From an uncultured Muribaculaceae bacterium (GTDB lineage Bacteria; Bacillota_I; Bacilli_A; RF39; UBA660): a stretch of 64,000 bases of DNA. The translations under genes were made by a program, and so were the position numbers. Numbering within the stretch: the first letter of the stretch is position 1; each line of letters starts with the position of its first letter. Location of the stretch: the NCBI GenBank assembly GCA_964369155.1, contig CAYJEI010000001.1:607-64606 (forward strand), in the 5' to 3' direction. The notes under the pieces were generated by a model. It was not told where the DNA came from, did no database searches, and saw nothing but the letters and a program-made list of their open reading frames with translations. This document shows positions 28,363 through 62,820 of the stretch, piece after piece.

Positions 28363-30534
28363 ATGGAGCAAATAAAAAAAGTTAAAAAAAGAGTAATAGT
28401 TATGATAGTAAGTGTACTTGTACTGACTATAAGCGTAGGATACGCATTTATAGCAGGAGGAGTAGGACCAGCTGCTAATACAGATGTGGATATAGCAAGT
28501 GGGTCTACAACTAAACTTACATTTACAGAAGGAACACCTATAGGTTTAGAGTTAAATCAAACAACGCTTGCTGAAGGTGGTAGTGATGTAAGAGGAACTA
28601 CTACATCAAGTGCAACACTTACACTTGGTACTAATGTGACAAGCGCAACAGAGTATTATCAAGTTTATTTAAATATAGAAGCAAATAATTTTATTTATAC
28701 AACATCAGCAAAAACACCAGAGATATTACTTTCAGTAACTGATCCTGAAGGAAATGCTAAAAGTATAGAAGGTCTTCCAGAAGTATCTGCTGGAGTATAT
28801 GACATAACAGATTATAAAGGTCTTATAAAAATAGTAGAAGATTACGAAATTACAGGAAGCACTACAACAGTGCATGACTGGGAAGCAACAATAACATTTG
28901 TAAATTTAGACTCAAATCAAGCAGCTAATAGTGAAAAATCATTAGATGCAACTCTTATATTACAACAACCGAAAATGATGATACCAGATATAGGAATAGT
29001 AACTCCGGAAGGATGCACAGACTGTGGTCCAGGTGAAACAGTAGTAACTCCATCTACAGGAGATGTAGGGGAAAATGGTTCTACATATGATATATATACA
29101 GTAGGCTATGTAACTAATACATCAGCAACTGGAGTAACATACTCTATAGATATAAAAATACCAGGAATGGATTACTCTAAGCAAACTTTAGAACTAGTAA
29201 ATACAGCAGAAGTAATGGAACTTTTATTTGATTATGAAGAGTATATAGATTTTAAAGGTTCAGGAGTAATATCTAGTGGAAATACTGATGCAAGTGCAGT
29301 AGCAACAGCAAACGATCTTCATACATCATCAATGAAAGAAAGTAACTTAACTATAAATAGTGTAAAAGTAACATGTGGATCAGATAAATGTACAGCAGTA
29401 ATAACTGAAACATTTAGTAACTTATCAGGGTTAACAGCACACTCTACAACAACAAATAGTGGAGCAGCAATTAATGCAATATATAATGGAATAATGTTTA
29501 ATGTAATGTTAAGTGAAAAAACTGACCCATGTATAAATCCAACATCATCAAAAGATTTAATACTATGTCACAATGGAGGGCAAGCAGTAATAGAGGCAAA
29601 AGCAGAGCCTGATTTTACACAAGTAGCTGATACAAATGAAGGAATGTTTGCAGCAGAAGATGAATATGGAACAAGTTACTATTATAGAGGTGCTGTAGAC
29701 AATAACTGGGTGTTATTTAATGGAATATACTGGAGAATAGTAAGTATAGCAGGAGATGGCTCATTAAAACTACTTTATAGTGGCACTACAGCGCCGACAA
29801 GTTCAACAGCAACTGTTATGACTGGAAGTGGAACAGAGATAGGTACTAGCGCGTTTAATACAAGTATTAATGATAATGCGTATGTAGGATACATGTATAC
29901 TTTAAATCAAAGACAAGGATTAGGAACATCAAGTACAATAAAAGGAACTTTAGAAACCTGGTATACAACTAATATGAATGGAGTTGACTCACAAATAGCA
30001 GATAATATATTTTGTTATGATAGGAGTTTAGCTACAGCTGGATTTCAAAATTATAATTATGGCTCAACAAATGGAATTTATACAGGAACTGGAATAGGAA
30101 CAAGTGGTACATTATACGGAGTGACTGCAAGAATAACAGCATCAAGTAGTTCTTTTGGCCCAGGGGGAACAGGACCAGACTTAATGTGTCCTAGCAAAGA
30201 AGATGCGTATACAGTAGATGATACAACAAACGGAAATGGAGCTCTTTCTAAAAAAGTAGGGTTACTCACTGCCGATGAGGCAGTAATGGCAGGCCTTGCG
30301 TCTGGCATAAACATCTTTAGTAACTATTTGTACACAAATAGTAGGTACTGGTTGGGATCTCCTTTTGGGTTCTATTCTAGTTCTCATGCTCGTGTGTGGT
30401 ATGTGTATTCTTCTGGTCGTTTGAGCAACGATTATGTCAATTATGTTTGTGGTGTCCGCCCTACAGTTTATCTTTCATCTAATATCGTGTTAAGCGGAAC
30501 AGGTGAGTGGAACGACGTTTACAAAATAAATTAG
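28363..30534 (+). CDS. Secreted mosaic protein, paralog 3 (long form, extra about 190-aa insert)
   Basis: Signal ending ISVGYAF; N-domain type B shared with paralog 4; C-terminal module and 3' flank shared with paralog 2. Confidence 0.8.
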   Translation: MEQIKKVKKRVIVMIVSVLVLTISVGYAFIAGGVGPAANTDVDIASGSTTKLTFTEGTPIGLELNQTTLAEGGSDVRGTTTSSATLTLGTNVTSATEYYQVYLNIEANNFIYTTSAKTPEILLSVTDPEGNAKSIEGLPEVSAGVYDITDYKGLIKIVEDYEITGSTTTVHDWEATITFVNLDSNQAANSEKSLDATLILQQPKMMIPDIGIVTPEGCTDCGPGETVVTPSTGDVGENGSTYDIYTVGYVTNTSATGVTYSIDIKIPGMDYSKQTLELVNTAEVMELLFDYEEYIDFKGSGVISSGNTDASAVATANDLHTSSMKESNLTINSVKVTCGSDKCTAVITETFSNLSGLTAHSTTTNSGAAINAIYNGIMFNVMLSEKTDPCINPTSSKDLILCHNGGQAVIEAKAEPDFTQVADTNEGMFAAEDEYGTSYYYRGAVDNNWVLFNGIYWRIVSIAGDGSLKLLYSGTTAPTSSTATVMTGSGTEIGTSAFNTSINDNAYVGYMYTLNQRQGLGTSSTIKGTLETWYTTNMNGVDSQIADNIFCYDRSLATAGFQNYNYGSTNGIYTGTGIGTSGTLYGVTARITASSSSFGPGGTGPDLMCPSKEDAYTVDDTTNGNGALSKKVGLLTADEAVMAGLASGINIFSNYLYTNSRYWLGSPFGFYSSSHARVWYVYSSGRLSNDYVNYVCGVRPTVYLSSNIVLSGTGEWNDVYKIN

Positions 30535-30766: not shown

Positions 30767-30912
30767 GGTTTTGTTACTTAGGGATCTCCTTTGGGTTCAA
30801 TTTTAATAATATTAATATATGGAAAGTGAATTCTTTTGGTAATTTGAAGAACAATAATGTCACTAATACTAATGGAATGCGTCTTGCAGAGCTTCCTTTC
30901 ATAATTTTAAAA
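30767..30912 (+). pseudogene. Frameshifted AT-rich fragment homologous to the C-terminal about 45 codons of the secreted-protein family
   Basis: Translates (with one frameshift) to LYW / YLGISFGFNFNNINIWKVNSFGNLKNNNVTNTNGMRLAELPFIILK*, which aligns to YWLGSPFGF...VWYVYSSGRL..GVRPTVYLSSNIVL; preceded by TTGCTT...TGgTATAAT promoter-like sequence. Confidence 0.55.
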
Positions 30913-31399: not shown

Positions 31400-31570
31400 A
31401 TTCTAGTGCGGAGGATATAGAAAGTAATTAGCGCAGGGATTAAGGTATCTTAATTGACGAGGTGTATAGTTATCGATTTATCAGCGGATGCTATACCGGC
31501 CAAAAGTGGTCGTTAAATATATGACAAAAAATAAAATTTAAGATTATAACAAAGCATATATTAAGAAAGG
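31400..31570 (+). ncRNA. glmS ribozyme: glmS ribozyme (GlcN6P-responsive self-cleaving riboswitch)
   Basis: A|GCGCAGGG cleavage-site core (A31430/G31431), P1 AUUAAG..CUUAAU, GACGAGG, P2 GUGUAUAG-UUAUCGAUUUAUCAGCGGAUGC-UAUAC matching the B. subtilis glmS leader; immediately 5' of glmS. Confidence 0.85.
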
Positions 31571-31583
31571 AAATAATTTTTAT

Positions 31584-33380
31584 ATGTGTGGAATCATAGG
31601 TTACATTGGTAATAAAAATGTTACTGATGTTTTAATTAAAGGGCTTAAAGCCTTAGAATATAGAGGATATGACTCTAGTGGAATAGCTGTTTTAAACAAA
31701 GATGTTGAAGTTTTTAAAGCAGTTGGCAAAGTTGTAAATTTAGAAGAAAAAATAAAAGAAAATAAAGATTCTTTTAAATTAGGTATTGCTCATACAAGAT
31801 GGGCTACTCATGGAGGAGTAACAGAAGATAATTGTCATCCTCATAAATCTGGTGATATAACACTTGTTCATAATGGTATAATTGAAAATTACTCAGAACT
31901 AAGAGAAGATTTAATTAAAAAAGGATATGATTTTAAATCAGAAACAGATACAGAAGTTGCAGCTGCTTTAATAGATTCTTTAGTAAAGGAACATAGTTTA
32001 CTAAAAGGTATTGAAGAAGCTAAAAAATTAATGAGAGGTAGTTTTGCTCTTTTAATTATTTATAAAAATGAAGAAAAACTGTATTGTGTTCGTAAAAATA
32101 GTCCTCTTATTGTAGGGGTATCAGCAGAAGAAAATTTTGTGGCATCAGATATTAGTGCAATACTTCCGTATACAAATAAATATATGGAAATAACTGAAAG
32201 TGATATATTTGAAATTACGAAAGATAAAATTGTAGTATATGAAAATTTAAAAGAAATAAAAAAAGAAGTATTACAAGAAAATATGACTGTTGAAAGTGCT
32301 CAAAAAAATGGATATGATTATTTTATGTTAAAAGAAATTAATGAGCAAAAAGAGTTAGGTAAAAAAATAGCGTTAAAATATTTTCCAAACGGAGAATTTT
32401 CTGATGAAATTATTGATTTAAGTAAATATGAATATATAGATATTGTGGCATGTGGTTCTGCTTATTACGCAGGAGCAGTTGGTAAATATTTTTTAGATAA
32501 ATATGGAAAAAATCTAATTATTAATATAGATGTAGCTAGTGAGTATAGATATAAAACACATCATTTCAGAAAAAATACATTAGTAGTTGTTATGAGTCAA
32601 TCAGGAGAAACTGCTGATACAATAGCAGCAATGAGAATGGCTCATGAAAATGGAGTAGATACACTTGCTATAGTAAATAATACTTTATCTACAATTAGCA
32701 AAGAGTGTAAATATGTTATACCAATGATAGCTGGTCCAGAAATTGCAGTAGCTACTTCAAAAGGGTATTTTACACAAGTAATAATTTTTAATTTACTTAT
32801 TTTAAAATATATGGAATCAACAGGAATTAAATCAAAAGATGAAGTAAAAGAAATTATAAATGAAATAGCTAATTTAGAAAATAGATTAAATAAATTAATA
32901 AATGATATAGATTATAAAAATATAGCAAAAGAACTTATTGAAAAAGATCATATATATTTCATAGGTAGAGGTATAGATTATATTGTATCATTAGAAGGAA
33001 GTTTAAAATTAAAAGAAATAAGTTATATTCATAGTGACGTATATCAAGCAGGAGAACTTAAACATGGATCAATAGCCCTTATTGATAAAGAAACTCCAAT
33101 AGTAGCTTTAATTACAGATGAAATGTTAGCAGAAAAAACTGTAAGTAACATCATAGAAGCTAAAGCAAGAGGTGCTTTAGTATATACATTTAAAACAGAT
33201 AATATAAATACTCCGATTAATATGAGTGATCATGAAATAATCTATAAAAATGCGCCAGAGTTAATTAATCCTTTAATATCAATCGTGCCAATGCAGCTAC
33301 TTTCTTATTGTGTAGCACTATTAAAAGGCTGTGATATTGATAAACCAAAAAATTTAGCAAAATCAGTAACAGTTGAGTAA
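31584..33380 (+). CDS. glmS: Glutamine--fructose-6-phosphate aminotransferase
   Basis: MCGIIGY N-terminal nucleophile, two SIS domains, 598 aa. Confidence 0.95.
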   Translation: MCGIIGYIGNKNVTDVLIKGLKALEYRGYDSSGIAVLNKDVEVFKAVGKVVNLEEKIKENKDSFKLGIAHTRWATHGGVTEDNCHPHKSGDITLVHNGIIENYSELREDLIKKGYDFKSETDTEVAAALIDSLVKEHSLLKGIEEAKKLMRGSFALLIIYKNEEKLYCVRKNSPLIVGVSAEENFVASDISAILPYTNKYMEITESDIFEITKDKIVVYENLKEIKKEVLQENMTVESAQKNGYDYFMLKEINEQKELGKKIALKYFPNGEFSDEIIDLSKYEYIDIVACGSAYYAGAVGKYFLDKYGKNLIINIDVASEYRYKTHHFRKNTLVVVMSQSGETADTIAAMRMAHENGVDTLAIVNNTLSTISKECKYVIPMIAGPEIAVATSKGYFTQVIIFNLLILKYMESTGIKSKDEVKEIINEIANLENRLNKLINDIDYKNIAKELIEKDHIYFIGRGIDYIVSLEGSLKLKEISYIHSDVYQAGELKHGSIALIDKETPIVALITDEMLAEKTVSNIIEAKARGALVYTFKTDNINTPINMSDHEIIYKNAPELINPLISIVPMQLLSYCVALLKGCDIDKPKNLAKSVTVE

Positions 33381-33481: not shown

Positions 33482-35590
33482 ATGGATGAAGATATATTTA
33501 AAGAATTAGATGAAGATAAAAATGATATAAAAGAAGTTATAGAACTAGAAAGCGAAGAAATTGCTGTTGAAGATGATGTAGTAATGGAAAAAAATAGAAA
33601 AGGTAGAAAAGGTAAAAAAGAAAAAAAACCATCATGGTTTAGTAAATTGCCTAAAAAGAAAAAGATAATAATTATAAGTATAATTGTAGTTGTTTTGCTA
33701 ATTATTATTGGTTTACTATTATATTTCTTTGTTTTTAGTAAAAGTGAAACAAAAGATAAAATAGAAGAAGTAAATATAGTAGTTGAAAAAAATAACTATA
33801 GATATGAAAATGGTGTTTTAGTATTTTTAGATTCAAATGATAAAGAAATTGGGAAATATGAATGTACAAATAAAGATCAAAATTTATGTTTAATAGCGTC
33901 TTATAGTATTGAAGAAAATCTATACACTTCTAAATATATAAATGAAGAAGGTGAAGAAATTAATTTTGATACACCTGTATTTTCTAATAGATATGTAATT
34001 GTTTATGATAATGAAAATTTGGATAACGAAAACCTTACATTATATGATCTAGAATTAAACAAGTCTTTAGGTGTTTACCAAAGTGTTAAAAGATATGATG
34101 ATAAAAATATTTATTTAGTAGATGAAAATGGCAAATATGGATTAATTAATTTAGAAGGTGAAGAGCCGCTAACAAAAATAGCTTTTGAATATAATTATCT
34201 AGGAAATAATATCGGTAGTTCCAAAATAGCATATAAACTAGATGACAAAAGTGGTTTACTTAATATAGATGGTACAAAATTTAAAGAAAATTTAAGTGGA
34301 ACAATATATAGTTATGATGATAATGGACTTGTAGTTCTAGAAACAAATGGGTCATATAAAATTTCAGGATTAACTAATACAGATGTATTAAAAGACAGTT
34401 ATAGTTTTATGTATATTGAAGAAGGATATATTTATTATGTAGATAATAATATGTTATATGTGAGACTAGATAATGGATCTAAACTTTACGAAGAAGGAAT
34501 AGAAATTTTAGAAGGTACAGTATTTGACAATGTAATTACTTACGATGAAAGTTATAAATTAATTAAAAGTGAGTATTTTATTGAAGCTATTGTTGAAACT
34601 GGAAGTTTAGAATTTACAATGAATGATGAAGAATATAGTTATAATAAATATGAAGCTTTAATAAATAATAATTATAATTACGTAAATTATTTTGATAAGA
34701 AACTTTACATTTATAGTGATGCTGCTAAAGAAGAAGATTATAAAATATACACATGCGAAAATGAAAATACCGTTGATGAATCTGATGCAAGCTTTGATAA
34801 TTGCTTTATTGCAACAGAATCAAAACTTCTTAACAGAACAAATGCAAAAGATACATTAGGGTTTATACCAATATACGGAAACAAATATATATTCATTAAT
34901 GATATGAAACCTAAATCTACAAGCGCCAACATAAAATTATGGGATTTAGATAAACCTGATGCAGAATATCCAATTGCAACTTATAAAAGTGTAGATATTG
35001 GTTACTACAATGACAGTAATGATATAATATCTGCAGATGCATCTAATTTAATAATAATGGCTCAAAATTTAAATAAATATTATGGTTTAATTAAACTAAA
35101 TAATACGAGTGTTGAATCTTTATTCGGAACAGAATTTATTTACTCAACAATCCAGCTTGCTAATGATGTATATTATACTAAAGATAAAGATGGGAATTAT
35201 AGAATATTTAACAAAAGTGGTACAGAGATAACTAACTCAGAAATTGAAATTAAAAATGAAATAGTTGATTATAATGGAAATTATTTGAAGGTTAAATCGG
35301 GTACTGGAAAATATTTAGTTTATAAAAATGATGGAACAATTGTAAGTAATGAACTTGCTAATATTAAACTTGGAACAGATAAATATCTAGGAGTTACAAG
35401 CGATGATAAAATAGAAGTATATAATTACAGTAATGGAAAAACAAATATACTTAGCGTAACAGTGCCGCTTTTAAGTTCAGATATTACATTTGTAGACAAT
35501 ACAACAGCTGGTTTTGAAATAATTTTTAAAGACAGTGAGCAAAAAGTAATAGGAACATATTCATTTAAACATAATGGTGAAGAAGTATGA
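33482..35590 (+). CDS. Membrane-anchored WG/KYG-repeat protein with Cys pairs
   Basis: Acidic then K-rich N-term, one TM, repeated NGKYGLINLEG..IAFEYNYLG motifs. Confidence 0.6.
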   Translation: MDEDIFKELDEDKNDIKEVIELESEEIAVEDDVVMEKNRKGRKGKKEKKPSWFSKLPKKKKIIIISIIVVVLLIIIGLLLYFFVFSKSETKDKIEEVNIVVEKNNYRYENGVLVFLDSNDKEIGKYECTNKDQNLCLIASYSIEENLYTSKYINEEGEEINFDTPVFSNRYVIVYDNENLDNENLTLYDLELNKSLGVYQSVKRYDDKNIYLVDENGKYGLINLEGEEPLTKIAFEYNYLGNNIGSSKIAYKLDDKSGLLNIDGTKFKENLSGTIYSYDDNGLVVLETNGSYKISGLTNTDVLKDSYSFMYIEEGYIYYVDNNMLYVRLDNGSKLYEEGIEILEGTVFDNVITYDESYKLIKSEYFIEAIVETGSLEFTMNDEEYSYNKYEALINNNYNYVNYFDKKLYIYSDAAKEEDYKIYTCENENTVDESDASFDNCFIATESKLLNRTNAKDTLGFIPIYGNKYIFINDMKPKSTSANIKLWDLDKPDAEYPIATYKSVDIGYYNDSNDIISADASNLIIMAQNLNKYYGLIKLNNTSVESLFGTEFIYSTIQLANDVYYTKDKDGNYRIFNKSGTEITNSEIEIKNEIVDYNGNYLKVKSGTGKYLVYKNDGTIVSNELANIKLGTDKYLGVTSDDKIEVYNYSNGKTNILSVTVPLLSSDITFVDNTTAGFEIIFKDSEQKVIGTYSFKHNGEEV

Positions 35591-36480
35591 TAAAAAAAGA
35601 TGATAAAGTAGTTTTATATATAATTGTAATTTTACTTATTATCTTTTTGCCTTTAAGTGCATATGGAACATATTTAAAATTTTTTACTAGTGACATGATA
35701 GAAAATCCAAATGAAAATTTCAAACATGAAGGAAGTTTATACTTTTACGAAAATGATGACTTACTAGGAACATATAAATGTATTAATACTTCATGCGATT
35801 ATGCAAAAAGTGTAGAAGATGAAATTTTTATGACTTATGAATATGAAAACGTGATGGAAAATATAGATATTTTAAATAGCAAATATGCCCTTATAGAAGA
35901 TAGTACTTATGTATTACAAGACATGGTAAATGATATACCGTTAACTACATTTGAAAGTGTAAAATTTTATAACTCGAATATTGAAGGAAATAATATATTT
36001 GTTAAAAATAATGGTAAATATGGCATGCTATCACTAGAAAGCATAAAGTTAATAATTCCATATGAATATGATTATTTAGGTGTAAAAAATTATTATAATA
36101 ATGGATTACTGCAAATATCAAATATTTTAGCAAAAAAAGATAATGGTTTTTTCATATTGAATGACAAAAATGAAGTGATAAGTAGTATATTTAATGAAAA
36201 TGTAATAGATTATAATAGTAACTATATAGTAACAACAAATAATATTGTATATGACTATGAAGGTAATAAAAATTTTGAATTAGTATTAATAAAACAAGTT
36301 TTTTTACTTAATGATTACATAATTATAATGGATGATAATGATAATATATTTGTATACGATAATAATTTCAATGAATTAAAATCATTTAATAGTAGCGGAG
36401 GTAGTTTAAGTGCTATAGAGCATTTAGAAACTATTGAAATTTTCATTGATAATATATCAATAGATAATGTTGAAAAATAA
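35587..36480 (+). CDS. Membrane-anchored WG/KYG-repeat protein (paralog of upstream gene)
   Basis: YKCINTSCDY and NGKYGMLSLE..IIPYEYDYLG similar to upstream ORF; start overlaps stop. Confidence 0.6.
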   Translation: MIKKDDKVVLYIIVILLIIFLPLSAYGTYLKFFTSDMIENPNENFKHEGSLYFYENDDLLGTYKCINTSCDYAKSVEDEIFMTYEYENVMENIDILNSKYALIEDSTYVLQDMVNDIPLTTFESVKFYNSNIEGNNIFVKNNGKYGMLSLESIKLIIPYEYDYLGVKNYYNNGLLQISNILAKKDNGFFILNDKNEVISSIFNENVIDYNSNYIVTTNNIVYDYEGNKNFELVLIKQVFLLNDYIIIMDDNDNIFVYDNNFNELKSFNSSGGSLSAIEHLETIEIFIDNISIDNVEK

Positions 36481-39289: not shown

Positions 39290-39550
39290 ATGAAAATAGT
39301 AAATAATATAAAAAATTTTCTTTATGATAAAAATTATTTTATAACAATTTATGATAATTACATTCATCTATTTAATTATGAAAAGATAATTAAATTTAGT
39401 AAAGATGAATTAATATTTATTTTTTCTGAATTTAAATTAACATTGAAAGGAGAAAATCTTTTAATAAGACAAATGCTTAAAAATGAAGTTCTAATTATAG
39501 GCAAAATTAAAAGCTTTAATATTATTTATGGAAAAGAAAATATGGATTAA
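39290..39550 (+). CDS. yqfC: Sporulation protein YqfC-like
   Basis: About 87 aa; ENLLIRQ...IIGKI pattern like B. subtilis YqfC; precedes the yqfD-like gene. Confidence 0.55.
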   Translation: MKIVNNIKNFLYDKNYFITIYDNYIHLFNYEKIIKFSKDELIFIFSEFKLTLKGENLLIRQMLKNEVLIIGKIKSFNIIYGKENMD

Positions 39551-40637
39551 AGTTAATAGTGATAAGTATTACAAAATATTAAAAAAATTAAACGATTTAG
39601 AAATAGAAATTTTTGATATAAAAAAAATAGAAGAAGAAATATATTTTAAAATATATACAGAAAATTTTGAGAAAATAAAAAAATTTTTATATACATATGA
39701 ATTTAAGTATCATAGCTTAAGTGGTATTTACAGTATAAAAGAAAAAGTTATAAATAATAAACTAACTTTATTCTTTTCTCTTTTTAGTGCATTATTACTC
39801 CTTGTTTTCAATAATATAATAGTAGATGTGGAAATTATGCATGAAAGCAGTGAGTTGATTAATATTTTAGAATCAGAGCTTACAAGTTATGATATAAAAG
39901 TTTTATCGTTTAAAAAAGACTATGAAGAATTAACTAAGATAAAAAATAATATATTAAATGACTATAAGGACAAAATTGATTGGCTCGAAATTGAAATAGT
40001 AGGTATGAAATATATCATTAAAGTTGAAGAACGTATAATAAATATAGAAGAAACTAGTGAAGAATATTGTAATGTATATGCAACATCAAATGCTAAAATA
40101 ACAGAGATAAGTGTAGAAACCGGAATACTAATGGTAAGTTTAGGGGATTTTGTTAAAGAGGGAGATTTACTAATTTCAGGAGATATAATATATAATGATA
40201 AATTAATGGGACAAGTTTGCGCTCAAGGTATTATAAAAGGCGAAAAATGGTATGAAACTAGTATTACAGTGCCTCTAAATTATTTCGAAGATGAAAAAAC
40301 GGGTTTAAAAAGATATAATTTCATTTATGAACATGAACAAGATAAAATTAGAATATTAAATTCAAGAATTGAAAATTTTGAAAGCGAAGAAACAATTTTA
40401 TTCGATATATTAGGATTTAAACTGTATTTAGAAACTCAATATGAAGTAAAAAGAAATTACTTTAAATATAGTGAAACAGAAGCAATAAATAAGGCATTAA
40501 CACTTGCAGAAGATAGTATGCTTTTAAAACTTTCAGAAAATGAACAAATTTTACAAAAAAAAGTTTTGAAAAAAACACAAAATAATAGTACAATAGAAGT
40601 AGATATATTTATGGTAACAGAAGAGGTTGTCAATTAG
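39528..40637 (+). CDS. yqfD: Sporulation protein YqfD-like
   Basis: 369 aa, single TM about residue 90, position upstream of ybeY-dgkA-era-recO as in Bacillus. Confidence 0.55.
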   Translation: MEKKIWIKVNSDKYYKILKKLNDLEIEIFDIKKIEEEIYFKIYTENFEKIKKFLYTYEFKYHSLSGIYSIKEKVINNKLTLFFSLFSALLLLVFNNIIVDVEIMHESSELINILESELTSYDIKVLSFKKDYEELTKIKNNILNDYKDKIDWLEIEIVGMKYIIKVEERIINIEETSEEYCNVYATSNAKITEISVETGILMVSLGDFVKEGDLLISGDIIYNDKLMGQVCAQGIIKGEKWYETSITVPLNYFEDEKTGLKRYNFIYEHEQDKIRILNSRIENFESEETILFDILGFKLYLETQYEVKRNYFKYSETEAINKALTLAEDSMLLKLSENEQILQKKVLKKTQNNSTIEVDIFMVTEEVVN

Positions 40638-43932: not shown

Positions 43933-46101
43933 ATGATAAAGAAAAATAAAGGGAAAATATTAATGGTTTTAGGAGTATTACTTGTTCTAACTTTTGGTAT
44001 AACATATGCATTTTTTGCAGGAGGAAGAGGTCCATCAGCAAGTAGTGATATAGAAACAGGAACAGGAATTACTACTAAATTATTATTTACAGAAGGTACA
44101 CCTATAAACTTAGAATTAAATGAAGATACTCTTTTAGTAGGTGGAAGTGATGTAAGTGGAACTACTACATCAAGCGCAACACTTACACTTGGAACAAATG
44201 TAACAAGTGCAACAGAGTATTATCAAGTTTATTTAAATGTAGAATCAAATAATTTTATTTATACAACAGCAACAAAAACACCAGAGATACTACTTTCAGT
44301 AACAGATCCTGAAGGAAATGCTAAAAGTATAGAAGGTCTTCCAGAAGTATCTGCTGGAGTATATGACATAACAGATTATAAAGGTCTTATAAAAATAGTA
44401 GAAGATTACGAAATCACAGGAAGCACTACAACCGTGCATGACTGGGAAGCAACAATAACATTTGTAAATTTAGATTCAAATCAATCTGCAAATGAAGGAA
44501 AAAATCTTGATGCAACTCTTATATTACAACAACCAAAAATGATGATACCAGATATAGGAATAGTAACTCCAGAAGGATGCACAGACTGTGGTCCAGGTGA
44601 AACAGTAGTAACTCCATCTACAGGAGATGTAGGGGAAAATGGTTCTACATATGATATATATACAGTAGGCTATGTAACTAATACATCAGCAACTGGAGTA
44701 ACATACTCTATAGATATAAAAATACCAGGAATGGATTACTCTAAGCAAACTTTAGAACTAGTAAATACAGCAGAAGTAATGGAACTTTTATTTGATTATG
44801 AAGAGTATATAGATTTTAAAGGTTCAGGAGTAATATCTAGTGGAAATACTGATGCAAGTGCAGTAGCAACAGCAAACGATCTTCATACATCATCAATGAA
44901 AGAAAGTAACTTAACTATAAATAGTGTAAAAGTAACATGTGGATCAGATAAATGTACAGCAGTAATAACTGAAACATTTAGTAACTTATCAGGGTTAACA
45001 GCACACTCTACAACAACAAATAGTGGAACCGCAATAAACGCCATATATAATGGAATAATGTTTAATGTAATGATAAGTGAAAAAACTGACCCATGTATAA
45101 ATCCAACAACATCAAAAGATTTAATTTTATGCCACAATGGGGGGCAAGAAGCAATAGAGGCAAAAGCCGAGCCTAATTTTACACGTGTTGCAGATACAAA
45201 CGAAGGAATGTTTGCAACAACAGATACATATGGAACAGCGTACTACTTCAGAGGAGCAGTAGATAATAATTGGTTATATTATAATGGAATATACTGGAGA
45301 ATAGTAAATATAGCAGGAGATGAATCGCTTAAACTACTTTATAGTGGTACTACGGCGCCGACAAGTTCAACAGCAACTGTTATGACTGGAAGTGGAACAC
45401 AGATAGGAGATAACACATTTAATACAACAACAACAGATAATGCATATGTAGGGTACATGTATACTTTAAATCAAAGGCAAGGACTAGGAACATCAAGTAC
45501 AATAAAAGGAACTTTAGAAAACTGGTATACAACATATATGAATGGAGTTGACTCACAAATAGTAGATAATATATTTTGTTATGATAGGAGTTTAGCTACA
45601 GCTGGATATCAAAGTTCTCATTTTGGTTCAGCAAATGGAAGTTATACAGGAACAGGACTAGGAACAAGTGCTACATTATATGGAACAGCAGCAAGAATAA
45701 CCGCATCAAGTAGTAGTAAGGCAGCAGGTGGAACAGGACCAGACTTAATGTGTCCTAGCAAAGAAGATGCATATACAGTAGATGATACAACAAATGGTAA
45801 TGGAGCTCTTTCTAAAAAAGTAGGGTTACTCACTGCCGATGAGGCAGTAATGGCAGGCCTTGCGTTTGAGGAAAACGCCAGTAGTAACTATTTGAACACA
45901 GATAGTTACTACTGGTTGGGCTCTCCTTTTGGGTACGCTTCTCCTTTTATTAGTGCTTATATGTGGTATGTGTATTCTTCTGGTATTCTGAACAACAATT
46001 ATGTCAATAATACTCTTGGTGTCCGCCCTGTAGTTTATCTTTCATCTAATAATAAAATAACTGGAACAGGAACTTGGGATGATTATTATGTAGTACAATA
46101 A
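43933..46101 (+). CDS. Secreted mosaic protein, paralog 4 (long form)
   Basis: Signal ending FGITYAF; 456-bp tract 44572-45027 identical to paralog 3; AT-rich variant C-terminal end (..GTGTWDDYYVVQ). Confidence 0.8.
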   Translation: MIKKNKGKILMVLGVLLVLTFGITYAFFAGGRGPSASSDIETGTGITTKLLFTEGTPINLELNEDTLLVGGSDVSGTTTSSATLTLGTNVTSATEYYQVYLNVESNNFIYTTATKTPEILLSVTDPEGNAKSIEGLPEVSAGVYDITDYKGLIKIVEDYEITGSTTTVHDWEATITFVNLDSNQSANEGKNLDATLILQQPKMMIPDIGIVTPEGCTDCGPGETVVTPSTGDVGENGSTYDIYTVGYVTNTSATGVTYSIDIKIPGMDYSKQTLELVNTAEVMELLFDYEEYIDFKGSGVISSGNTDASAVATANDLHTSSMKESNLTINSVKVTCGSDKCTAVITETFSNLSGLTAHSTTTNSGTAINAIYNGIMFNVMISEKTDPCINPTTSKDLILCHNGGQEAIEAKAEPNFTRVADTNEGMFATTDTYGTAYYFRGAVDNNWLYYNGIYWRIVNIAGDESLKLLYSGTTAPTSSTATVMTGSGTQIGDNTFNTTTTDNAYVGYMYTLNQRQGLGTSSTIKGTLENWYTTYMNGVDSQIVDNIFCYDRSLATAGYQSSHFGSANGSYTGTGLGTSATLYGTAARITASSSSKAAGGTGPDLMCPSKEDAYTVDDTTNGNGALSKKVGLLTADEAVMAGLAFEENASSNYLNTDSYYWLGSPFGYASPFISAYMWYVYSSGILNNNYVNNTLGVRPVVYLSSNNKITGTGTWDDYYVVQ

Positions 46102-46192
46102 AATAATTAAATAAAATTCATAGATTATTAATTTATGGATTTTTTAATTGAAAAAAATGTCATATTTTGTTATTATTATAATAGGTGATAAA

Positions 46193-46834
46193 GTGGCAAG
46201 TTTGATTTTTAAATATAGTGCAATGAATGCAGGTAAAACTATTAGTATTTTGCAAACAGCTCATAGTTATGATGAAAAAAATTTGAAATACATTATTATG
46301 AAATCTGTTAAAGATACTAAGGGAGATGATACAATTGTATCAAGAGTAGGTGGAGAAAATAAAAAGGTAGACATCTTACTAGGAGAAAATGAATCTTTAC
46401 TTACTGAAAAAAATTATAAAAAGTATTATACAGCAAGGGTTATACTTGTTGATGAAGTAGAGCTTTTAAATGAAAAACAAATTGAAGAACTATGGACAAT
46501 AGCTCATTTAATAAAAATACCAGTAATTACATATGGACTTAAAAGTAATTTTTCTGGAGAAATATTTTCAGCAGGAATCGCCAAACTTGTAGCATTTGCT
46601 GATGAACTTGAAGAAATTGGTTCGACTAGTTTGTGTATTTGTGGTGCTAAAGCTACATTTAATGCAAGAAAGCATAATGATAAATATACTGATAAGGGAG
46701 AAATAGTCGTAATAGATGGCTCTGATGAAGAAGTCGAGTACATTCCATTATGTGGAGATTGTTATTTAAAACATGTTAAATTAAAATCAGCATGTGTTAA
46801 AAAGTTATCAGATTTAGTTGAAAAAATAAGTTAG
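46193..46834 (+). CDS. tdk: Thymidine kinase
   Basis: P-loop MNAGKT, C-terminal CICGAKA...CGDCY zinc ribbon; GTG start after TATAAT/AGGTGA. Confidence 0.8.
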   Translation: MASLIFKYSAMNAGKTISILQTAHSYDEKNLKYIIMKSVKDTKGDDTIVSRVGGENKKVDILLGENESLLTEKNYKKYYTARVILVDEVELLNEKQIEELWTIAHLIKIPVITYGLKSNFSGEIFSAGIAKLVAFADELEEIGSTSLCICGAKATFNARKHNDKYTDKGEIVVIDGSDEEVEYIPLCGDCYLKHVKLKSACVKKLSDLVEKIS

Positions 46835-46852: not shown

Positions 46853-48166
46853 ATGGCAAAAGAAAAAATTAAAATGGGTAAAAAAGAAAAGATATTTAAT
46901 GTTATAAGTTTTTTAATTATAGGAGTACTTGCTATTTACTATGGTGGACGTGCAGTATACTGGTTTATATATGAACTTAGTGAAGCTCAAAATAGAGATA
47001 ATACTGCTGCACATTATGTAATAAATGATAATGAAATAGTAGATGAAGGTGACGGATTATACAGAGCTAAAGATACTTATTATTTTGCTGGAAATCCTGA
47101 AAATAATTACGTGACATTAGGTGGTGCGACGTATCGCATACTTAGCATAAATGAAAACAACGAAATGAAATTAGTTCTTAATGATGTTGCAGCAAGTTTT
47201 ATGTGGGGAGAAGAAAATAGTTATTCATCTTCAAATGTAGATGTTTGGCTAGGAGATAGTGGTGTATACTATGATACATTAATAGAAGCAGAAAAATATT
47301 TATCAAAAACTAAATTTACTGAAGATGTTTTAAGTGATGGAAGTTTAGAAGTTGGAGACAAATTATTTGAAGAGTATGTTACAACACTTACGGTATCTGA
47401 TTATGAAACTGCAGGTGGAAGCGATAGCTTTTTAAATAATGAAAAATATTTCTGGTTAATTGGGAAATCAAATGAAAATAATTTATATGTAAACTCCAGT
47501 GGAGTAATAAGTGAATACACAACTAGCGAATCATATGGCGTTAAACCAGTTATAACTTTAAAAGGTGATGTTATAAGATTAAGAGGAGAAGGAACTTTAA
47601 GTAATCCTATATATATTGATACAAAAGATGATATGACATATATAAATTCTTATGTAACGTTAGGTACTGATACATACAAAGTTTTTGAAGAAAATGAAGA
47701 TATACTTAAACTTGTTAAAACAGATAGTATAGCTGGTGTTCTAAAACCATATGGAACACTTAATACTAATTTTGATTTAAGTGATGCAACTAGTTTAGCG
47801 TATTATTTAAATAATGATTACTTAAATAGTTTAAGTTATGCAACTAGTTTATCAGATTGTACGTTTAATACTGGTGTGATAAGTGAAGAAAAAGGATTTA
47901 ACTATTCAAATATTTTAGAAGAAACTATAGTGGCTAAAGTTGGAATTATGAATATTTTTGATTATAATAATAACGATATAGAAAATTATTTTTACTTAAC
48001 AAATACAGGTCTAGGAAGTGATACAGCTTATGTGAAAAGTGAAAATGGATTATTAAAAAAAGATTTAATAACTTCTGAAAAAGAAATAGTTCCAGTTATT
48101 TGTTTAAATAAAGATAAAATAATAGATGGTGTAGGAGCTAGTTATAGCCCATATACAGTAGAATAG
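46853..48166 (+). CDS. Membrane-anchored protein with two tandem copies of the family C-terminal module (YYFAGNPENNYV...YRIL; YFWLIGKS...GVKPVITL; YFYLTN...IVPVICL)
   Basis: N-terminal TM anchor; motif-level similarity to the paralog C-terminal domain. Confidence 0.65.
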   Translation: MAKEKIKMGKKEKIFNVISFLIIGVLAIYYGGRAVYWFIYELSEAQNRDNTAAHYVINDNEIVDEGDGLYRAKDTYYFAGNPENNYVTLGGATYRILSINENNEMKLVLNDVAASFMWGEENSYSSSNVDVWLGDSGVYYDTLIEAEKYLSKTKFTEDVLSDGSLEVGDKLFEEYVTTLTVSDYETAGGSDSFLNNEKYFWLIGKSNENNLYVNSSGVISEYTTSESYGVKPVITLKGDVIRLRGEGTLSNPIYIDTKDDMTYINSYVTLGTDTYKVFEENEDILKLVKTDSIAGVLKPYGTLNTNFDLSDATSLAYYLNNDYLNSLSYATSLSDCTFNTGVISEEKGFNYSNILEETIVAKVGIMNIFDYNNNDIENYFYLTNTGLGSDTAYVKSENGLLKKDLITSEKEIVPVICLNKDKIIDGVGASYSPYTVE

Positions 48167-48174
48167 GAGTATTT

Positions 48175-49203
48175 ATGAAAAGAAAATTAAGATGGCATAC
48201 TAAATTATTTATTGTTCTAGATATCATAGCTGTTACTGGTCTTATCACAATAAATGTTCCAGCATTTCAAGAGTTTTGGATACCAACAGCAATGACTACA
48301 AAAAGTCATAAATATTTTGCGAGAACTTTTTATAGTCAAGATAAAATAGAAGAAGTGTTAGGTCAAAATTATATTAAATCTTCTACAGAAGATATTAATT
48401 TAGATGATATCGTAATTGGTGACAGTACCGATAAAACTGAATTTGAATCTATTTATGAAGAAGAAATATATACTAAAGAAGAAAATAACGAAGTATACAA
48501 AATAATAAAACTAGAAGAAGATAATTTTGTTGGTTTTTTAACTGTTGTTTATGACCCAGCTGATGTAGAACTTGCTATACCACAAAACTTAGGTAAAAAA
48601 GGTGAAAGAGTTATCGATTTAGTTTCAAATAATGACGGTCTTGTTGGTATAAATGGTGGAGGCTTTGAGGATTTAGATGGATATGGTGATGGATCAACTC
48701 CATATGGAAGTATAATTTATGAAGGAGAACTTATATATTCTTATCCGGGTGGTTCTGGAGAACTTATAGGATTTACTGAAGACCATAAACTTTATTTAAC
48801 AGATGAATCTCCAGAAGAGGCTATTGCAAATGGAATGTATGAAGCAGTAGAGTTTGGACCAAATTTAATAGTAAACGGTAAGGTTACTGAAATAGAAGGT
48901 AATGGTGGATGGGGAGTTGCCCCAAGAACAGTTATTGCTCAAAGAAAAGATGGAATAGTACTATTTTTAATAATTGATGGTAGACAACCAGGATATAGTG
49001 ATGGAGCTACAATGAATGAAGTAATTGAAGTACTAACTAGATATGGAGCATATAATGCAGCTAATCTTGATGGTGGAGGTTCAACAACTATGGCAGTAGG
49101 AAATGAACTTTATAATAAACCATCAGCAGGCGTATCTCAAGGTGGAAGATATGTTTCAAATGGTTTTATAGTAACTAATGATTTTGGGAAAACTGTGGAA
49201 TAG
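48175..49203 (+). CDS. Phosphodiester glycosidase family protein (NAGPA-like), membrane-anchored
   Basis: INGGGF...ANLDGGGSTTM motifs. Confidence 0.7.
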   Translation: MKRKLRWHTKLFIVLDIIAVTGLITINVPAFQEFWIPTAMTTKSHKYFARTFYSQDKIEEVLGQNYIKSSTEDINLDDIVIGDSTDKTEFESIYEEEIYTKEENNEVYKIIKLEEDNFVGFLTVVYDPADVELAIPQNLGKKGERVIDLVSNNDGLVGINGGGFEDLDGYGDGSTPYGSIIYEGELIYSYPGGSGELIGFTEDHKLYLTDESPEEAIANGMYEAVEFGPNLIVNGKVTEIEGNGGWGVAPRTVIAQRKDGIVLFLIIDGRQPGYSDGATMNEVIEVLTRYGAYNAANLDGGGSTTMAVGNELYNKPSAGVSQGGRYVSNGFIVTNDFGKTVE

Positions 49204-49215
49204 ATAGGAGAAAAT

Positions 49216-50430
49216 ATGATAAGAAGAGCTTTAATAATAATTATAATTTTAGTAGTTATTACAGGTTCTTTTTTCTTTTTTTATAAAGATGAAAGTAAAA
49301 TAGAAATATTTAAAGAAGATATCAGTGAATATTATAGTAAGTATGTAACTACAAATAAAAAAAGTGAGATATATACTAAAGAAAATGGTGAATATATAGC
49401 CATAGGATTATTAGAATCAAGTTTTCAACTTAGTTTAAATGAAATAGAAATAACCGAAGAAACTGAGTATTTTGAATTTAATTTAGATGATAATGTATAT
49501 TATATTTCGTATAAAAATGTAGAAAAAATAGATAATATAAGTATAAAGGATGATAGATTTTTAAATTATATTGTTTTTAACGAAAATGTTAAAAGTAAAG
49601 AAAGTATAAATTTGTTTCAAGACGAAAAAAATATCATAACTTTAGATGTAGGAATAGATAAACCAATAGTAAGAAAAGATGATGGAAAATATTATATTGA
49701 ATACAATGATGAGTTATATTATGTTTTAGAAGAAGATGTAACAGTTTATGAAAATAATAATACTAATGTAAATACTGCTACTGACGTGCCAGCAACTCTT
49801 TATCATTTCATGTATAAAGAAGAAGAATACAAAGACTGTATGGAAATAATTTGTCATTCAGAAACACAAATTAGAAGTCATTTTGATTATTTAAAGGAAA
49901 ATAATTATTTTACAATGACTACCAAAGAGATGGAGTGGTGGATAGATGGAAAAATAAATGTTCCAGAAAATTCAATTTTAATTACAATAGATGATGCAGC
50001 TTGGCATCAAAATTGGAATGAAATTATAACAGAATATGAGCTAAATGTCACATATTTTCTAGTTACATCATGGATTGATCTTGAAAATATAACAACTCCT
50101 TATATTGAAATGGCTGCACATACTCATGCACAGCATAATACAGGCGTATGTCCAGGTGGCCAAGGTTCACCTATGAAATGTACTGATAAAGAAGTGCTGT
50201 TAGAAGATTTAGCATTAAACAGAAGTTTACTAAATAACACAGATTCATTTGCTTATCCATTTTTTGAATATAATGACTACACAATAGAAGTTCTTAAAGA
50301 AGCTGGATTTAAAACTGCTTATCGAGGTGGAATGGCTAGTGTAACTAAAGGTGTAGATAAATTTAAAATACCTAGGATAACAATGTTTAGTTACACTACT
50401 ATGAATCAGTTCATAGACTATGTTAGCTAA
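49216..50430 (+). CDS. Polysaccharide deacetylase (NodB/CE4) family, membrane-anchored
   Basis: ILITIDDA and HTHAQH metal-binding motifs. Confidence 0.65.
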   Translation: MIRRALIIIIILVVITGSFFFFYKDESKIEIFKEDISEYYSKYVTTNKKSEIYTKENGEYIAIGLLESSFQLSLNEIEITEETEYFEFNLDDNVYYISYKNVEKIDNISIKDDRFLNYIVFNENVKSKESINLFQDEKNIITLDVGIDKPIVRKDDGKYYIEYNDELYYVLEEDVTVYENNNTNVNTATDVPATLYHFMYKEEEYKDCMEIICHSETQIRSHFDYLKENNYFTMTTKEMEWWIDGKINVPENSILITIDDAAWHQNWNEIITEYELNVTYFLVTSWIDLENITTPYIEMAAHTHAQHNTGVCPGGQGSPMKCTDKEVLLEDLALNRSLLNNTDSFAYPFFEYNDYTIEVLKEAGFKTAYRGGMASVTKGVDKFKIPRITMFSYTTMNQFIDYVS

Positions 50431-50663
50431 ATTTAGATTTCTAATTACACCTTATGAAGTTTTTAAAAAGTTAATTTAAGCAATTATTACTATGGAAACT
50501 TTGGAAAAATACTATAGTAAGTTAAGTAATTAATATTAAACTACAGATTTTGGAAACGACAATTGGATTAAACTTAGTATATTATAAAATTTTAATGCAC
50601 CACTACATCTGGGACAAAAGGAGTAAATATTACGTTTTATCTTGAATAAAATAACTTTCTATA

Positions 50664-50689
50664 AAACTGTACATTTGTACAGTTTTTTT
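50664..50689 (+). terminator. Intrinsic terminator/attenuator in glyQS leader
   Basis: AAAACTGTACA-ttt-GTACAGTTTT + T-run; then TATAAT and RBS. Confidence 0.5.
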
Positions 50690-59190: not shown

Positions 59191-60399
59191 GTGAAAAAAG
59201 TAAATATTATGGGAAATTTAATTATTAGTAGAATAATGACTTTGTTAATTATTTCTTTTTTTGTTTTAATAATTATAAATCATAATAGTGATTATCTAAT
59301 AAATGATTTACTTAGAAATTTTTTGTTATTATTTATTATTATTTTAACAATATTTTTGAAAGTATTTAACAACAGAATAAAAAACAATGTTAAAATAACA
59401 AGAAAAAGTATTATATATAGAATATTACTATCAATATATATAATTGGTTGTATAACTTTTATTAGTTTATTATACTCACCATATAATGGTTTTAGAGATT
59501 GGTTTGTAACAACAGCAATGCAAACTAAATCACATCAATATTACGCTAAATGGTTTTATAGCGACAAACAAATTGAAGAAGTAATGTCTAACAACTATAT
59601 TATTGAACCAGAAGGCAACACTGATAAAAATTTAATTGACATTCATAAAGAAGTGACATATAAAAACGATTATGAAAAAGCTATTTTAGAAAAAGATTAT
59701 GATAATCAAGAATATAAAATAATCGAGTTTGAAGTAAATGGAGCATCAGCATATATCGCTGCTATATATGATCCATGTATGGTGCATGTAGGTGTGACAA
59801 AGTATTTAAATACAAGAGGGCAATACGTAACAGATATGGCCAAAGATAAAGATTCTATGCTAGCTATAAATGGCGGAGGATTTTATGATCCTAATCATAA
59901 TAGTGCAGGAGGAACACCAAGGGGAGTAACATTTTCAAATGGAAGTATAGTTACTGGTCAAAATGAATTAACAGATGATGTTATAGGATTTACTGATGAT
60001 AATGTACTCATGTTACTACACGATGTAACTGCCAGTGAAGCGCAAAGTTATGGAATAAGAGATGCTGTATCAATGGGACCTTTTTTAATAATTAATGGAA
60101 AATCAGCATTTATCAGTGGAAATGGTGGCTGGGGTAGAGCAGCAAGAACAGCAATAGGCCAAAGAGAAGATGGAATTGTATTATTTTTAGTAGTCGATTC
60201 CAATGAACTTAGAACTGGTGGAGCTGATATGTCAGATTTAACTCAAATTATGGAAAATTATGGAGCAGTAAATGCTGCTAATCTTGATGGTGGAACATCA
60301 AGTGTAATAGTTGAAAATTATGAAATTATAAATGATCCAATAGACAGTGATTTAAAACATCAAACTAGGCCTATAGCAACAATGTTTTATTTAAAATAA
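59191..60399 (+). CDS. Phosphodiester glycosidase family protein (second paralog), membrane-anchored
   Basis: INGGGFYD...ANLDGGTSS; similar to 48175-49203. Confidence 0.7.
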   Translation: MKKVNIMGNLIISRIMTLLIISFFVLIIINHNSDYLINDLLRNFLLLFIIILTIFLKVFNNRIKNNVKITRKSIIYRILLSIYIIGCITFISLLYSPYNGFRDWFVTTAMQTKSHQYYAKWFYSDKQIEEVMSNNYIIEPEGNTDKNLIDIHKEVTYKNDYEKAILEKDYDNQEYKIIEFEVNGASAYIAAIYDPCMVHVGVTKYLNTRGQYVTDMAKDKDSMLAINGGGFYDPNHNSAGGTPRGVTFSNGSIVTGQNELTDDVIGFTDDNVLMLLHDVTASEAQSYGIRDAVSMGPFLIINGKSAFISGNGGWGRAARTAIGQREDGIVLFLVVDSNELRTGGADMSDLTQIMENYGAVNAANLDGGTSSVIVENYEIINDPIDSDLKHQTRPIATMFYLK

Positions 60400-61908: not shown

Positions 61909-62820
61909 ATGAAAAGAAGATTTAATACTAAAAAAAGGCGAAAGTTTATTTCTAAATATATATTTATGTTATTTTTATTTATTATAACTTTTACTTCGGT
62001 AGTATCATTATTATTAAGTACATTTGAGTTAGATTTAAATAATGAAAAAATTGTTAACTATATACTTAATAAAGAGGATAAAGAACTAAATTTAGAAAAA
62101 TTAAATTCTAAGGAATTTTTTTTGAAATATGCTTTTGATTATGATGTAAGTTCAGTAGTTCCAGTTATAGAAGAAAATGATTCTTTAATAGAAGCAGAAA
62201 TAAATATTGATCCGTTAGTATATATTTATAATACTCATACAACAGAGCAATATAGTTATGAAAGTTTTGAGGCATTTAATATAAATCCAACAGTAGTTAC
62301 AGCATCTTATATTTTATCAGAGTACCTCAAAGACGAAGAAATATACTCAGTAGTTGAAACTCTGAACCCAGTTGATATATTAAGAGAAAATAGTTGGTCT
62401 TATTCAAAGAGTTATGATGCATCTCGTTATTTGATTACTGATGCAATTACCAAATATCCGACAATTAATTATTATATAGATATTCACAGAGATTCGGCAA
62501 ATTATGATATCACAACTACTTATATAAATGATAAAACTTGTGCAAGATTTATGTTTATAGTTGGTGAGGATAATCCTGCTTATGAATCTAATTTAATCTT
62601 ATCTAATTTAATTAATGATGAACTAAATTTAATACATCCAGGTTTTACAAGAGGTGTAGTTGGTAAAAGTGGAACAAACGTAAATGGGGTTTATAATCAA
62701 GATTTACATCAAAACGCAATTCTAATCGAAGTGGGAGGTCAGTATAACAGTATAGAAGAAGTCAATTGTTCATTAGTTTATTTAGCAGAAGTTTTAAGAA
62801 AGGTTATAAATGGAAACTAG
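61909..62820 (+). CDS. spoIIP: Stage II sporulation protein P-like
   Basis: IDIHRD...ILIEVGG motifs; rpsT-adjacent position as in Bacillus. Confidence 0.7.
   Translation: MKRRFNTKKRRKFISKYIFMLFLFIITFTSVVSLLLSTFELDLNNEKIVNYILNKEDKELNLEKLNSKEFFLKYAFDYDVSSVVPVIEENDSLIEAEINIDPLVYIYNTHTTEQYSYESFEAFNINPTVVTASYILSEYLKDEEIYSVVETLNPVDILRENSWSYSKSYDASRYLITDAITKYPTINYYIDIHRDSANYDITTTYINDKTCARFMFIVGEDNPAYESNLILSNLINDELNLIHPGFTRGVVGKSGTNVNGVYNQDLHQNAILIEVGGQYNSIEEVNCSLVYLAEVLRKVINGN

Follow-up and report, generated by a model that had tools for sequence, protein, structure and literature searches.

Proteins with a DUF6273 domain (PF19789) have been found among phage proteins and among the targets of diversity-generating retroelements (DGRs) (PMC10743442), and the N-terminal domain of the secreted IgA peptidase of Thomasclavelia ramosa (PDB 9qa6) has been annotated as DUF6273 as well (PMC12402451). 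In the phosphodiester glycosidase NAGPA an invariant DGGGS loop binds or recognises N-acetylglucosamine-1-phosphate (GlcNAc-1-phosphate), and in vertebrates control is exerted by a propeptide that occludes the enzyme and keeps it inactive (PMC13474241). Relatives of both families are encoded side by side in a DNA stretch of 64,000 nucleotides (here called the window) from an uncultured Muribaculaceae bacterium (GTDB lineage Bacilli_A; RF39; UBA660; assembly GCA_964369155.1, contig CAYJEI010000001.1, positions 607 to 64,606). The present analysis deals with three close-packed open reading frames (ORFs) on the + strand of this window, between positions 46853 and 50430 and separated by intergenic gaps of 8 nt and 12 nt: ORF A, a type II membrane protein with two DUF6273-like modules, the phosphodiester glycosidase NAGPA1, and a polysaccharide deacetylase of family CE4. 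The pairing of ORF A with NAGPA1 is conserved among related bacteria and points to an undescribed two-protein unit for processing of cell envelope glycans.

Comparison with known systems

ORF A belongs to the same domain family as the DGR targets, the gut-phage 'tentaclins' and the T. ramosa IgA peptidase, and shares with these DUF6273 proteins the ending ...YWL...GVRP...L...G(T/D)GT..(N/D)PY. Unlike the other members, it carries two tandem copies of the domain on an N-terminal anchor, with no further domain and no variable region, and it is encoded by a core-genome gene coupled to a NAGPA gene rather than being a phage tail or secreted multidomain protein. NAGPA1 and a second glycosidase of the window, NAGPA2 (59191-60399, + strand), resemble the vertebrate uncovering enzyme and the Bacteroides DUF2233 protein 3ohg in their strong PF09992 matches, and, like the human enzyme, are taken to be single-pass membrane proteins. 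NAGPA1 has the DGGGS motif of vertebrate NAGPA, while NAGPA2 has DGGTS. Both bacterial enzymes are anchored at the N-terminus; their vertebrate counterpart is held by a C-terminal transmembrane segment that comes with an EGF-like stalk. The bacterial enzymes also lack any recognisable propeptide, and NAGPA1 has a conserved neighbouring gene for a lectin-like partner.

The CE4 domain of the deacetylase scores best against PgaB and IcaB, which deacetylate poly-N-acetylglucosamine (PNAG). Unlike these enzymes, it is preceded by an extra N-terminal region of ~200 aa of unknown fold and a membrane anchor, and no PNAG synthase (IcaA/PgaC) was seen near its gene. Four secreted paralogs with a domain homologous to the ORF A modules are encoded elsewhere in the window. 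They are comparable to the targets of DGRs with a C-type lectin fold, such as Mtd of a Bordetella phage and TvpA of Treponema, in that part of their lectin-like domain, a C-terminal stretch, is variable. As in DGRs, a nearby non-coding copy (30778-30889) has A, mostly within AAY codons, at the variable positions. Unlike known DGRs, the 64 kb of the window contain neither a reverse transcriptase nor an accessory gene.

Conservation of the ORF A-NAGPA1 pair

When one genome of each GTDB species was scanned with an alignment of 12 ORF A sequences, 55 ORF A loci were obtained, all from uncultured gut Bacilli, 'Mollicutes' or 'Erysipelotrichaceae' metagenome-assembled genomes, with ruminants, rabbit, mouse and human as hosts. 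Neighbouring genes were counted over the 54 loci with enough downstream sequence. An ortholog of NAGPA1 is located immediately 3' of the ORF A ortholog in 51 of these 54 species-level loci. The spacing ranges from a 4-nt overlap to a gap of 9 nt in 39 of the 51, amounts to 80-87 nt in two, and appears as a longer overlap in nine, a figure that depends on the convention of starting each ORF at its first start codon. The pairing extends to distant relatives of ORF A (30-36% identity), five of six of which have a NAGPA gene directly downstream (L003, L005, L061-L063). The flanks of these distant pairs are all different, comprising wall-polysaccharide biosynthesis genes with a penicillin-binding protein (PBP), iPGM with a pseudopilin-like N_methyl protein, PriA with FTHFS, a cation ATPase, and pyruvate kinase. 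Genes for envelope glycans adjoin the pair in relatives, among them TagO/WecA-type Glycos_transf_4, Rml genes, GT2, GT4, LicD and GtrA. Compared to the proteins of the window, NAGPA1 orthologs show a median identity of 59.6% and ORF A orthologs one of 39.1%.

The other genes are less constant. A CE4 gene follows NAGPA1 in only 14 of the 54 loci and is absent from 40, and a NAGPA2-like paralog is found within 5 kb upstream of ORF A in 44 of 54, whereas NAGPA2 of the window lies 11 kb downstream. A previous sequence-only reading of this DNA had regarded the arrangement of ORF A next to paralog 4 and followed by the two enzymes as a sign that the conserved module binds or recognises a cell-surface glycopolymer. 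The link with NAGPA is what the comparison upholds; CE4 is a minority neighbour, and adjacency to paralog 4 is limited to the closest relatives (L006, L008, L015). In the window itself paralog 4 is near ORF A but one gene removed, as a thymidine kinase gene (46148-46834) lies in between.

In most of the relatives (L001 5083-7934, most of L009-L060) the usual gene order is an N_methyl (type IV pilin-like) protein, a membrane-anchored protein of 188 aa, NAGPA2, one to five tandem acidic membrane proteins with two transmembrane segments, ORF A and NAGPA1. The N_methyl, 188-aa and two-transmembrane acidic families have no homolog in the window. Among long members of the ORF A family, P0269 and P0285 were considered as fusions and rejected: they join iPGM to ORF A and are probably artefacts of read-through or gene calling, iPGM being a separate upstream gene in L005 (6465-9389). 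The other long members have N-terminal extensions of low complexity only.

Architecture and fold of ORF A

ORF A (46853-48166, + strand) encodes a protein of 437 aa from an ATG start. Its Lys-rich N-terminus, a short cytoplasmic tail in the type II orientation, is followed by a single hydrophobic segment at aa 12-35 (46886-46957, + strand), with a maximum of 1.99 on the Kyte-Doolittle scale (19-residue windows, threshold >=1.6); by the same measure no second hydrophobic segment occurs in the protein. A helix predicted by AlphaFold2 at aa 10-49 covers this segment, and the N-terminal transmembrane anchor of the sequence-only reading is thereby retained as a signal-anchor or transmembrane segment. 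The best-conserved columns of a 56-sequence alignment include E12, F15, N16, S19, F20, Y29, Y30, G31, R33, Y36, W37 and F38. Because these transmembrane and juxtamembrane residues are conserved despite an overall identity of ~39%, they suggest a specific contact within the membrane.

Module 1 (aa ~58-256; 47024-47620, + strand) is DUF6273-like and ends in YGVKPVITLK...GEGTLSNPIYI, while the more divergent module 2 (aa ~259-437; 47627-48163, + strand) ends in IVPVICLNK...GVGASYSPYTVE. The motifs from which two tandem copies had been proposed are all present, YYFAGNPENNYV...YRIL at aa 76-96, YFWLIGKS...GVKPVITL at ~aa 199-236 and YFYLTN...IVPVICL at ~aa 379-418. Alignment of module 1 (aa 50-258) with module 2 (aa 259-437) by hhalign, based on a family alignment of 35 sequences, gave a probability of 99.0% and an E-value of 8.7e-18 over 160 columns, an internal duplication far beyond chance. 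In the same family alignment a basic tail precedes the hydrophobic helix, after which come the two modules with their common ending YG(V/I)RPVITLK...GDGT..NPY.I. The family comprises 223 matches of 430-460 aa, every one unnamed or 'hypothetical', and the sequences that an exhaustive profile search returned at E<=1e-30 fall into 577 clusters at 50% identity, for the most part of full-length proteins of 420-470 aa. It is thus a large, unannotated family that is stable in its architecture. Two giant proteins, P0241 (4905 aa) and P0364 (3528 aa), contain the module in 13-15 tandem copies.

ORF A has no match in Pfam, NCBIfam or PHROGs, and its modules miss the gathering score of DUF6273 (23.5 bits). 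Profile-profile comparison with the C-terminal module of the paralogs (a profile of 56 sequences) gave a probability of 99.7% and an E-value of 7.9e-26 over 88 columns for module 1, and 96.7% and 3.2e-10 over 173 columns, the whole module, for module 2. The idea that ORF A is a membrane-anchored relative of the paralogs with a duplicated C-module is therefore sustained by the domain comparison. The paralog module corresponds to the ORF A domain plus an insertion of ~100 residues. As paralogs 1, 3 and 4 score above the Pfam threshold, this homology makes the ORF A modules relatives of DUF6273.

The AlphaFold2 model of full-length ORF A (pLDDT 91.7, pTM 0.86) shows a long helix followed by two beta-rich domains; module 1 modelled alone reached a pLDDT of 95.8. 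At E<=1e-3, a Foldseek search of BFVD with module 1 gave 20 models of viral proteins, with a probability of 1.0 and TM-scores up to 0.64/0.65. Many of these are called 'DUF6273 domain-containing protein' and several have tail or receptor-binding names. On the basis of these models module 1 is predicted to share the DUF6273 fold. In the PDB the full ORF A model has 9qa6, the IgA peptidase of T. ramosa, as its only match at E<=0.001 (E 1.1e-5, probability 1.0). With module 1, the best PDB match is the C-terminal domain of Lcl (DUF1566; 8q4e), which is weak (probability 0.84, E 0.12, TM-score 0.53 normalised to the target). Module 1 may resemble this domain in a lectin-like overall fold, but the identity is 17%, module 1 is ~80 residues larger, and no binding motif common to the two was identified. 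When the ORF A family profile was searched against the PDB sequences, nothing significant came up.

The enzymes

NAGPA1 (48175-49203, + strand; 342 aa) starts 8 nt 3' of ORF A. It matches PF09992 with an E-value of 4.9e-41 (141.2 bits, cut-off 25), has DGGGS at aa 299 and an N-terminal anchor at aa 8-32, and its relatives in the PDB include vertebrate NAGPA and 3ohg. Judged by its sequence, it is a membrane-anchored phosphodiester glycosidase with an intact catalytic motif. NAGPA2 matches the same family (E 2.7e-39, 135.5 bits); the DGGTS variant of its loop (aa 366) is kept among its orthologs. It has three hydrophobic segments in the first 97 residues, of which the two extra ones fall within an N-terminal part of ~55 aa that is absent from the orthologs. 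The starts of the orthologs correspond to a TTG at 59356, while the GTG at 59191 is preceded by a Shine-Dalgarno-like site, AAGGGTG.

The deacetylase (49216-50430, + strand; 404 aa) matches PF01522, Polysacc_deac_1, with an E-value of 4e-8 (33.7 bits, cut-off 23.1). It contains TIDD (aa 257) and HTHAQH (aa 302), that is, the D-D and H-x4-H metal-site motifs, and the spacing of the latter is PgaB/IcaB-like. Comparison with NCBIfam (IcaB, E 3.8e-12, 46.2 bits against a cut-off of 248; PgaB, E 5.8e-9, 34.8 bits against 322) places the enzyme closest to the PgaB/IcaB type, though far below both equivalog cut-offs. Its match in the PDB is 4u10, a poly-beta-1,6-GlcNAc N-deacetylase (E 1.7e-6). These Pfam matches agree with the earlier naming of a NAGPA-like glycosidase and a CE4 deacetylase after ORF A and of a second glycosidase further on. 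ORF A, NAGPA1 and the deacetylase are alike in having one hydrophobic anchor, at the N-terminus.

The secreted paralogs and a DGR-like template

All four paralogs are encoded on the + strand. Paralog 4 (43933-46101; 722 aa) is a secreted protein in which the DUF6273 module with its insertion makes up the C-terminal ~320 aa (about 45130-46098). Paralog 1 (2366-3970; 534 aa) is 70% identical to it over the C-terminal 335 aa, paralog 2 (5076-6692; 538 aa) 72% over the C-terminal 352 aa, and paralog 3 (28363-30534; 723 aa) is 84% identical to it. In blastp comparisons within the window the C-terminal ~335 aa of the paralogs are 70-84% identical and the N-terminal parts ~26%. Scores above the Pfam threshold for DUF6273 were reached by three of them, paralogs 1, 3 and 4, with 27.4, 25.0 and 25.2 bits, respectively. 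Homologs elsewhere (412-1089 aa) have only the C-terminal ~44% in common.

A non-coding, adenine-rich segment of ~112 nt (30778-30889, + strand) with many AAY (Asn) codons lies between paralog 3, which ends 243 nt before it, and a glmS ribozyme (31419-31572; 68 bits), which itself precedes GlmS (31584-33380). By blastn only paralogs 1 and 4 were detected, their 3' part showing 70-73% identity to the segment, and the segment can be aligned with 3785-3899, 6504-6624, 30352-30466 and 45916-46033 of paralogs 1-4. Read in frame, the segment gives LGISFGFNFNNINIWKVNSFGNLKNNNVTNTNGMRLA, while the variable stretches of the paralogs read LGSPFGF..x..VWYVYSSG.L.N..V....GVRP. In the five-way alignment 33 of the 37 A positions of the segment are variable compared to 22 of the 75 non-A positions (Fisher p 1.2e-9), and A occupies just 4 of the 57 invariant columns. 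A pattern of this kind is typical of DGR template repeats compared with their variable regions.

Non-A mismatches number 13-16 of 34-41 in each paralog copy (35-40%). No RVT Pfam match was obtained for any ORF >=150 aa of the window, and the Y[AVMIL]DD motif is absent from all its open frames. Outside the window no copy linked to a reverse transcriptase was found: pattern scans gave only three short metagenome contigs and no viral contig, and the collected loci of relatives contain no template-like copy. Because of the non-A mismatches and the lack of a reverse transcriptase in the window, the DGR-like system is most likely a relic or is served in trans by another part of the genome. In the secreted paralogs the part of the module that faces the ligand thus appears to have been diversified, while ORF A has the domain in an undiversified form that is conserved among orthologs. 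The presence of a conserved 'housekeeping' ORF A beside diversified paralogs allows a direct comparison within one binding fold.

A homolog of the paralogs with two tandem C-modules, P0132 (761 aa), heads a Tad pilus operon (L064 10001-16816), in which it is followed by TadE, a TadZ-like protein, the TadA ATPase, TadB and TadC; some members of the paralog family may be pilus-associated. The signal peptides of the four paralogs (2366-2470, 5076-5180, 28363-28460 and 43933-44030) end in G(V/I)(S/T/G)YAF(M/F/I)(S/A)(S/G)(D/G). This ending looks similar to the SipW-dependent signals of the TasA/camelysin type, a likeness that Pfam and NCBIfam profiles do not bear out, as the paralogs match neither camelysin nor TIGR04088. 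The tandem pair of paralogs 1 and 2 is followed by a DDE transposase gene (6891-8075, - strand) and a gene of a PD-(D/E)XK transposase family (9023-9952, + strand), which might have to do with how the paralogs were duplicated or moved.

Proposed role of ORF A and NAGPA1

The simplest reading, for which we consider the chances about even, is that ORF A is a non-catalytic, lectin-like ectoprotein which acts as recognition or positioning partner of NAGPA1 on an envelope glycopolymer. The protein would consist of two rigidly packed lectin-like DUF6273 domains on a membrane anchor. It would most likely be co-translated with NAGPA1, and both proteins would be located at the outer face of the cytoplasmic membrane, beneath the wall. 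There ORF A may recognise or position a glycopolymer bearing GlcNAc-1-phosphate, such as a teichoic acid-like polymer or the linkage or repeat unit of a wall polysaccharide, and NAGPA1, as an enzyme of the phosphodiester alpha-N-acetylglucosaminidase type, would cleave the glycosidic bond between GlcNAc and phosphate. A substrate of this kind agrees with the neighbourhood of the pair in relatives, where genes of wall-polysaccharide and teichoic type occur. The PgaB/IcaB-like deacetylase would have joined the same transcription unit in this lineage and in a minority of relatives. The genes for ORF A, NAGPA1 and the deacetylase probably belong to a single transcription unit, and the proteins would act where membrane and wall meet. 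The first terminator-like site after the three genes is at 50663-50686; scans for promoters and terminators gave the same counts as in shuffled sequence of this AT-rich DNA, and no promoter is claimed. The domain architecture, the internal duplication, the DUF6273 homology, the intact enzyme motifs and the conservation of the pair are direct observations, to which we add by inference the cooperation of ORF A with NAGPA1, the binding of a glycan by ORF A and the identity of the substrate. Glycopolymer binding by the DUF6273 module, as put forward in the sequence-only reading, is likewise something we infer.

Several findings weigh against this role. The literature searched on bacterial NAGPA gave no characterised bacterial substrate, so that for the GlcNAc-1-phosphate polymer we rely on an analogy with the eukaryotic enzyme, and we know of no DUF6273 domain with a known ligand. 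Neither ORF A nor its two halves match DUF6273 in Pfam even at E<=10, the protein having diverged too far for that model, and only 9 of 35 members of the ORF A family match it directly (E<0.01; best 1.4e-6). The assignment as lectin-like is weak with respect to solved structures, 8q4e being the best match. The downstream NAGPA gene is truly missing from loci L031, L036 and L042, as it is next to a distant family member, P0069 (L004), and no fusion of ORF A with NAGPA was seen among the long family members tested. Furthermore, the synteny speaks for co-inheritance and probable co-expression, which falls short of showing a complex.

In the sequence-only reading the C-module was suggested to be the means by which the secreted paralogs attach to the wall, in which case DUF6273 would be a docking domain for a constant glycopolymer and ORF A a tethered version of it. 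The C-module is indeed the constant part of the paralogs and the sole part common to their homologs, and its homology with the ORF A modules is real. Wall-binding modules of Gram-positive bacteria are typically C-terminal, and so is this module. However, the stretch of it that is homologous to the ligand-binding variable regions of DGR targets is also its most divergent part, with mismatches to 30778-30889 that are specific for A. This fits a diversified binding head rather than an anchor for a constant polymer, and argues against docking to one such wall polymer. In addition, DUF6273 is found in DGR targets and in proteins with phage tail or receptor-binding names (PMC10743442), the position of P0132 at the head of a Tad pilus operon suggests outward display, and paralog 4 is the only one of the four that lies near the enzymes. 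Wall docking thus seems improbable. The same structural relatives, that is, phage proteins named for tails or receptor binding and the N-terminal domain of the secreted IgA peptidase, together with the occurrence of the ORF A family in gut-associated bacteria, would be in line with ORF A as a surface receptor or adhesin that binds something outside the cell (host glycan, immunoglobulin, another cell or a phage), its adjacency to NAGPA reflecting co-expression of envelope genes. The ectodomain of ORF A, however, is only ~385 aa long, has no stalk and is carried by an N-terminal membrane anchor. With such a short ectodomain, and in bacteria that encode wall and sporulation machinery (SpoIIP and YqfD in the window; a PBP next to the pair in L003), ORF A would sit beneath the wall. 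Nor would mere co-expression lead one to expect tight coupling (-4 to +9 nt) in very different contexts. An outward-facing adhesin role for ORF A is therefore unlikely, and the reading as a whole has little probability.

Alternatively, ORF A might regulate, inhibit or assist in the assembly of NAGPA1, for example by holding the enzyme inactive or localised, and not recognise the substrate. The conserved pairing and the conserved residues in and near the membrane would be expected of such a protein as well; NAGPA1 is far more conserved than ORF A; and the occluding propeptide of the vertebrate enzyme provides a precedent (PMC13474241). Two complete binding-type domains would be a large investment for an inhibitor, and the sequence offers nothing to separate a regulator from a recognition partner; we regard this explanation as possible but not likely. 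CE4 enzymes act on the spore cortex in Bacillus, and the window encodes the sporulation proteins YqfD (39528-40637) and SpoIIP (61909-62820), with Spo0A near the pair in L005. The three genes might on these grounds be seen as a set for remodelling of the spore cortex or coat, with a PdaA-like CE4 acting on spore peptidoglycan. Yet the deacetylase is closest to PgaB/IcaB and not to PdaA, most loci lack it altogether, and the flanks hold housekeeping genes (thymidine kinase, GlyRS), which makes a sporulation set very improbable. The recognition-partner reading can also be taken further. ORF A and NAGPA1 might form a two-subunit ecto-enzyme that detaches or trims wall-linked glycopolymers through cleavage of their GlcNAc-1-phosphate linkage unit, polymer-GlcNAc-alpha-1-P-6-MurNAc (MurNAc, N-acetylmuramic acid), with ORF A as polymer-recognition subunit and the paralogs as DGR-diversified offshoots. 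In this specific form the proposal is doubtful; if true, the enzyme would be the hydrolytic counterpart of the LCP ligases, and it would provide the first physiological role for the bacterial NAGPA family and the first ligand for DUF6273.

Whatever its activity, the ORF A-NAGPA1 pair is a concrete two-protein system that links the widespread bacterial NAGPA/DUF2233 enzymes with DUF6273, a common domain of surface and phage proteins. It belongs to uncultured gut Bacilli with small genomes, the envelope biology of which is almost unstudied.

Other features of the window

The window has a G+C content of ~27%, and nearly all of its genes are on the + strand; GlmM (22055-23422) is encoded on the minus strand. 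Housekeeping genes around ORF A, NAGPA1 and the deacetylase are those for Era, RecO, GlyRS, CdsA, RseP, MiaA and thymidine kinase. Two overlapping ORFs, 33482-35590 (702 aa) and 35587-36480 (297 aa), gave no credible Pfam match, the one match seen being sub-threshold (19.8 bits, cut-off 29.4). Each has a single N-terminal hydrophobic segment, they have Tyr/Asn-rich repeats of the 'YKC.N..C' type in common, and they may represent further uncharacterised envelope proteins.

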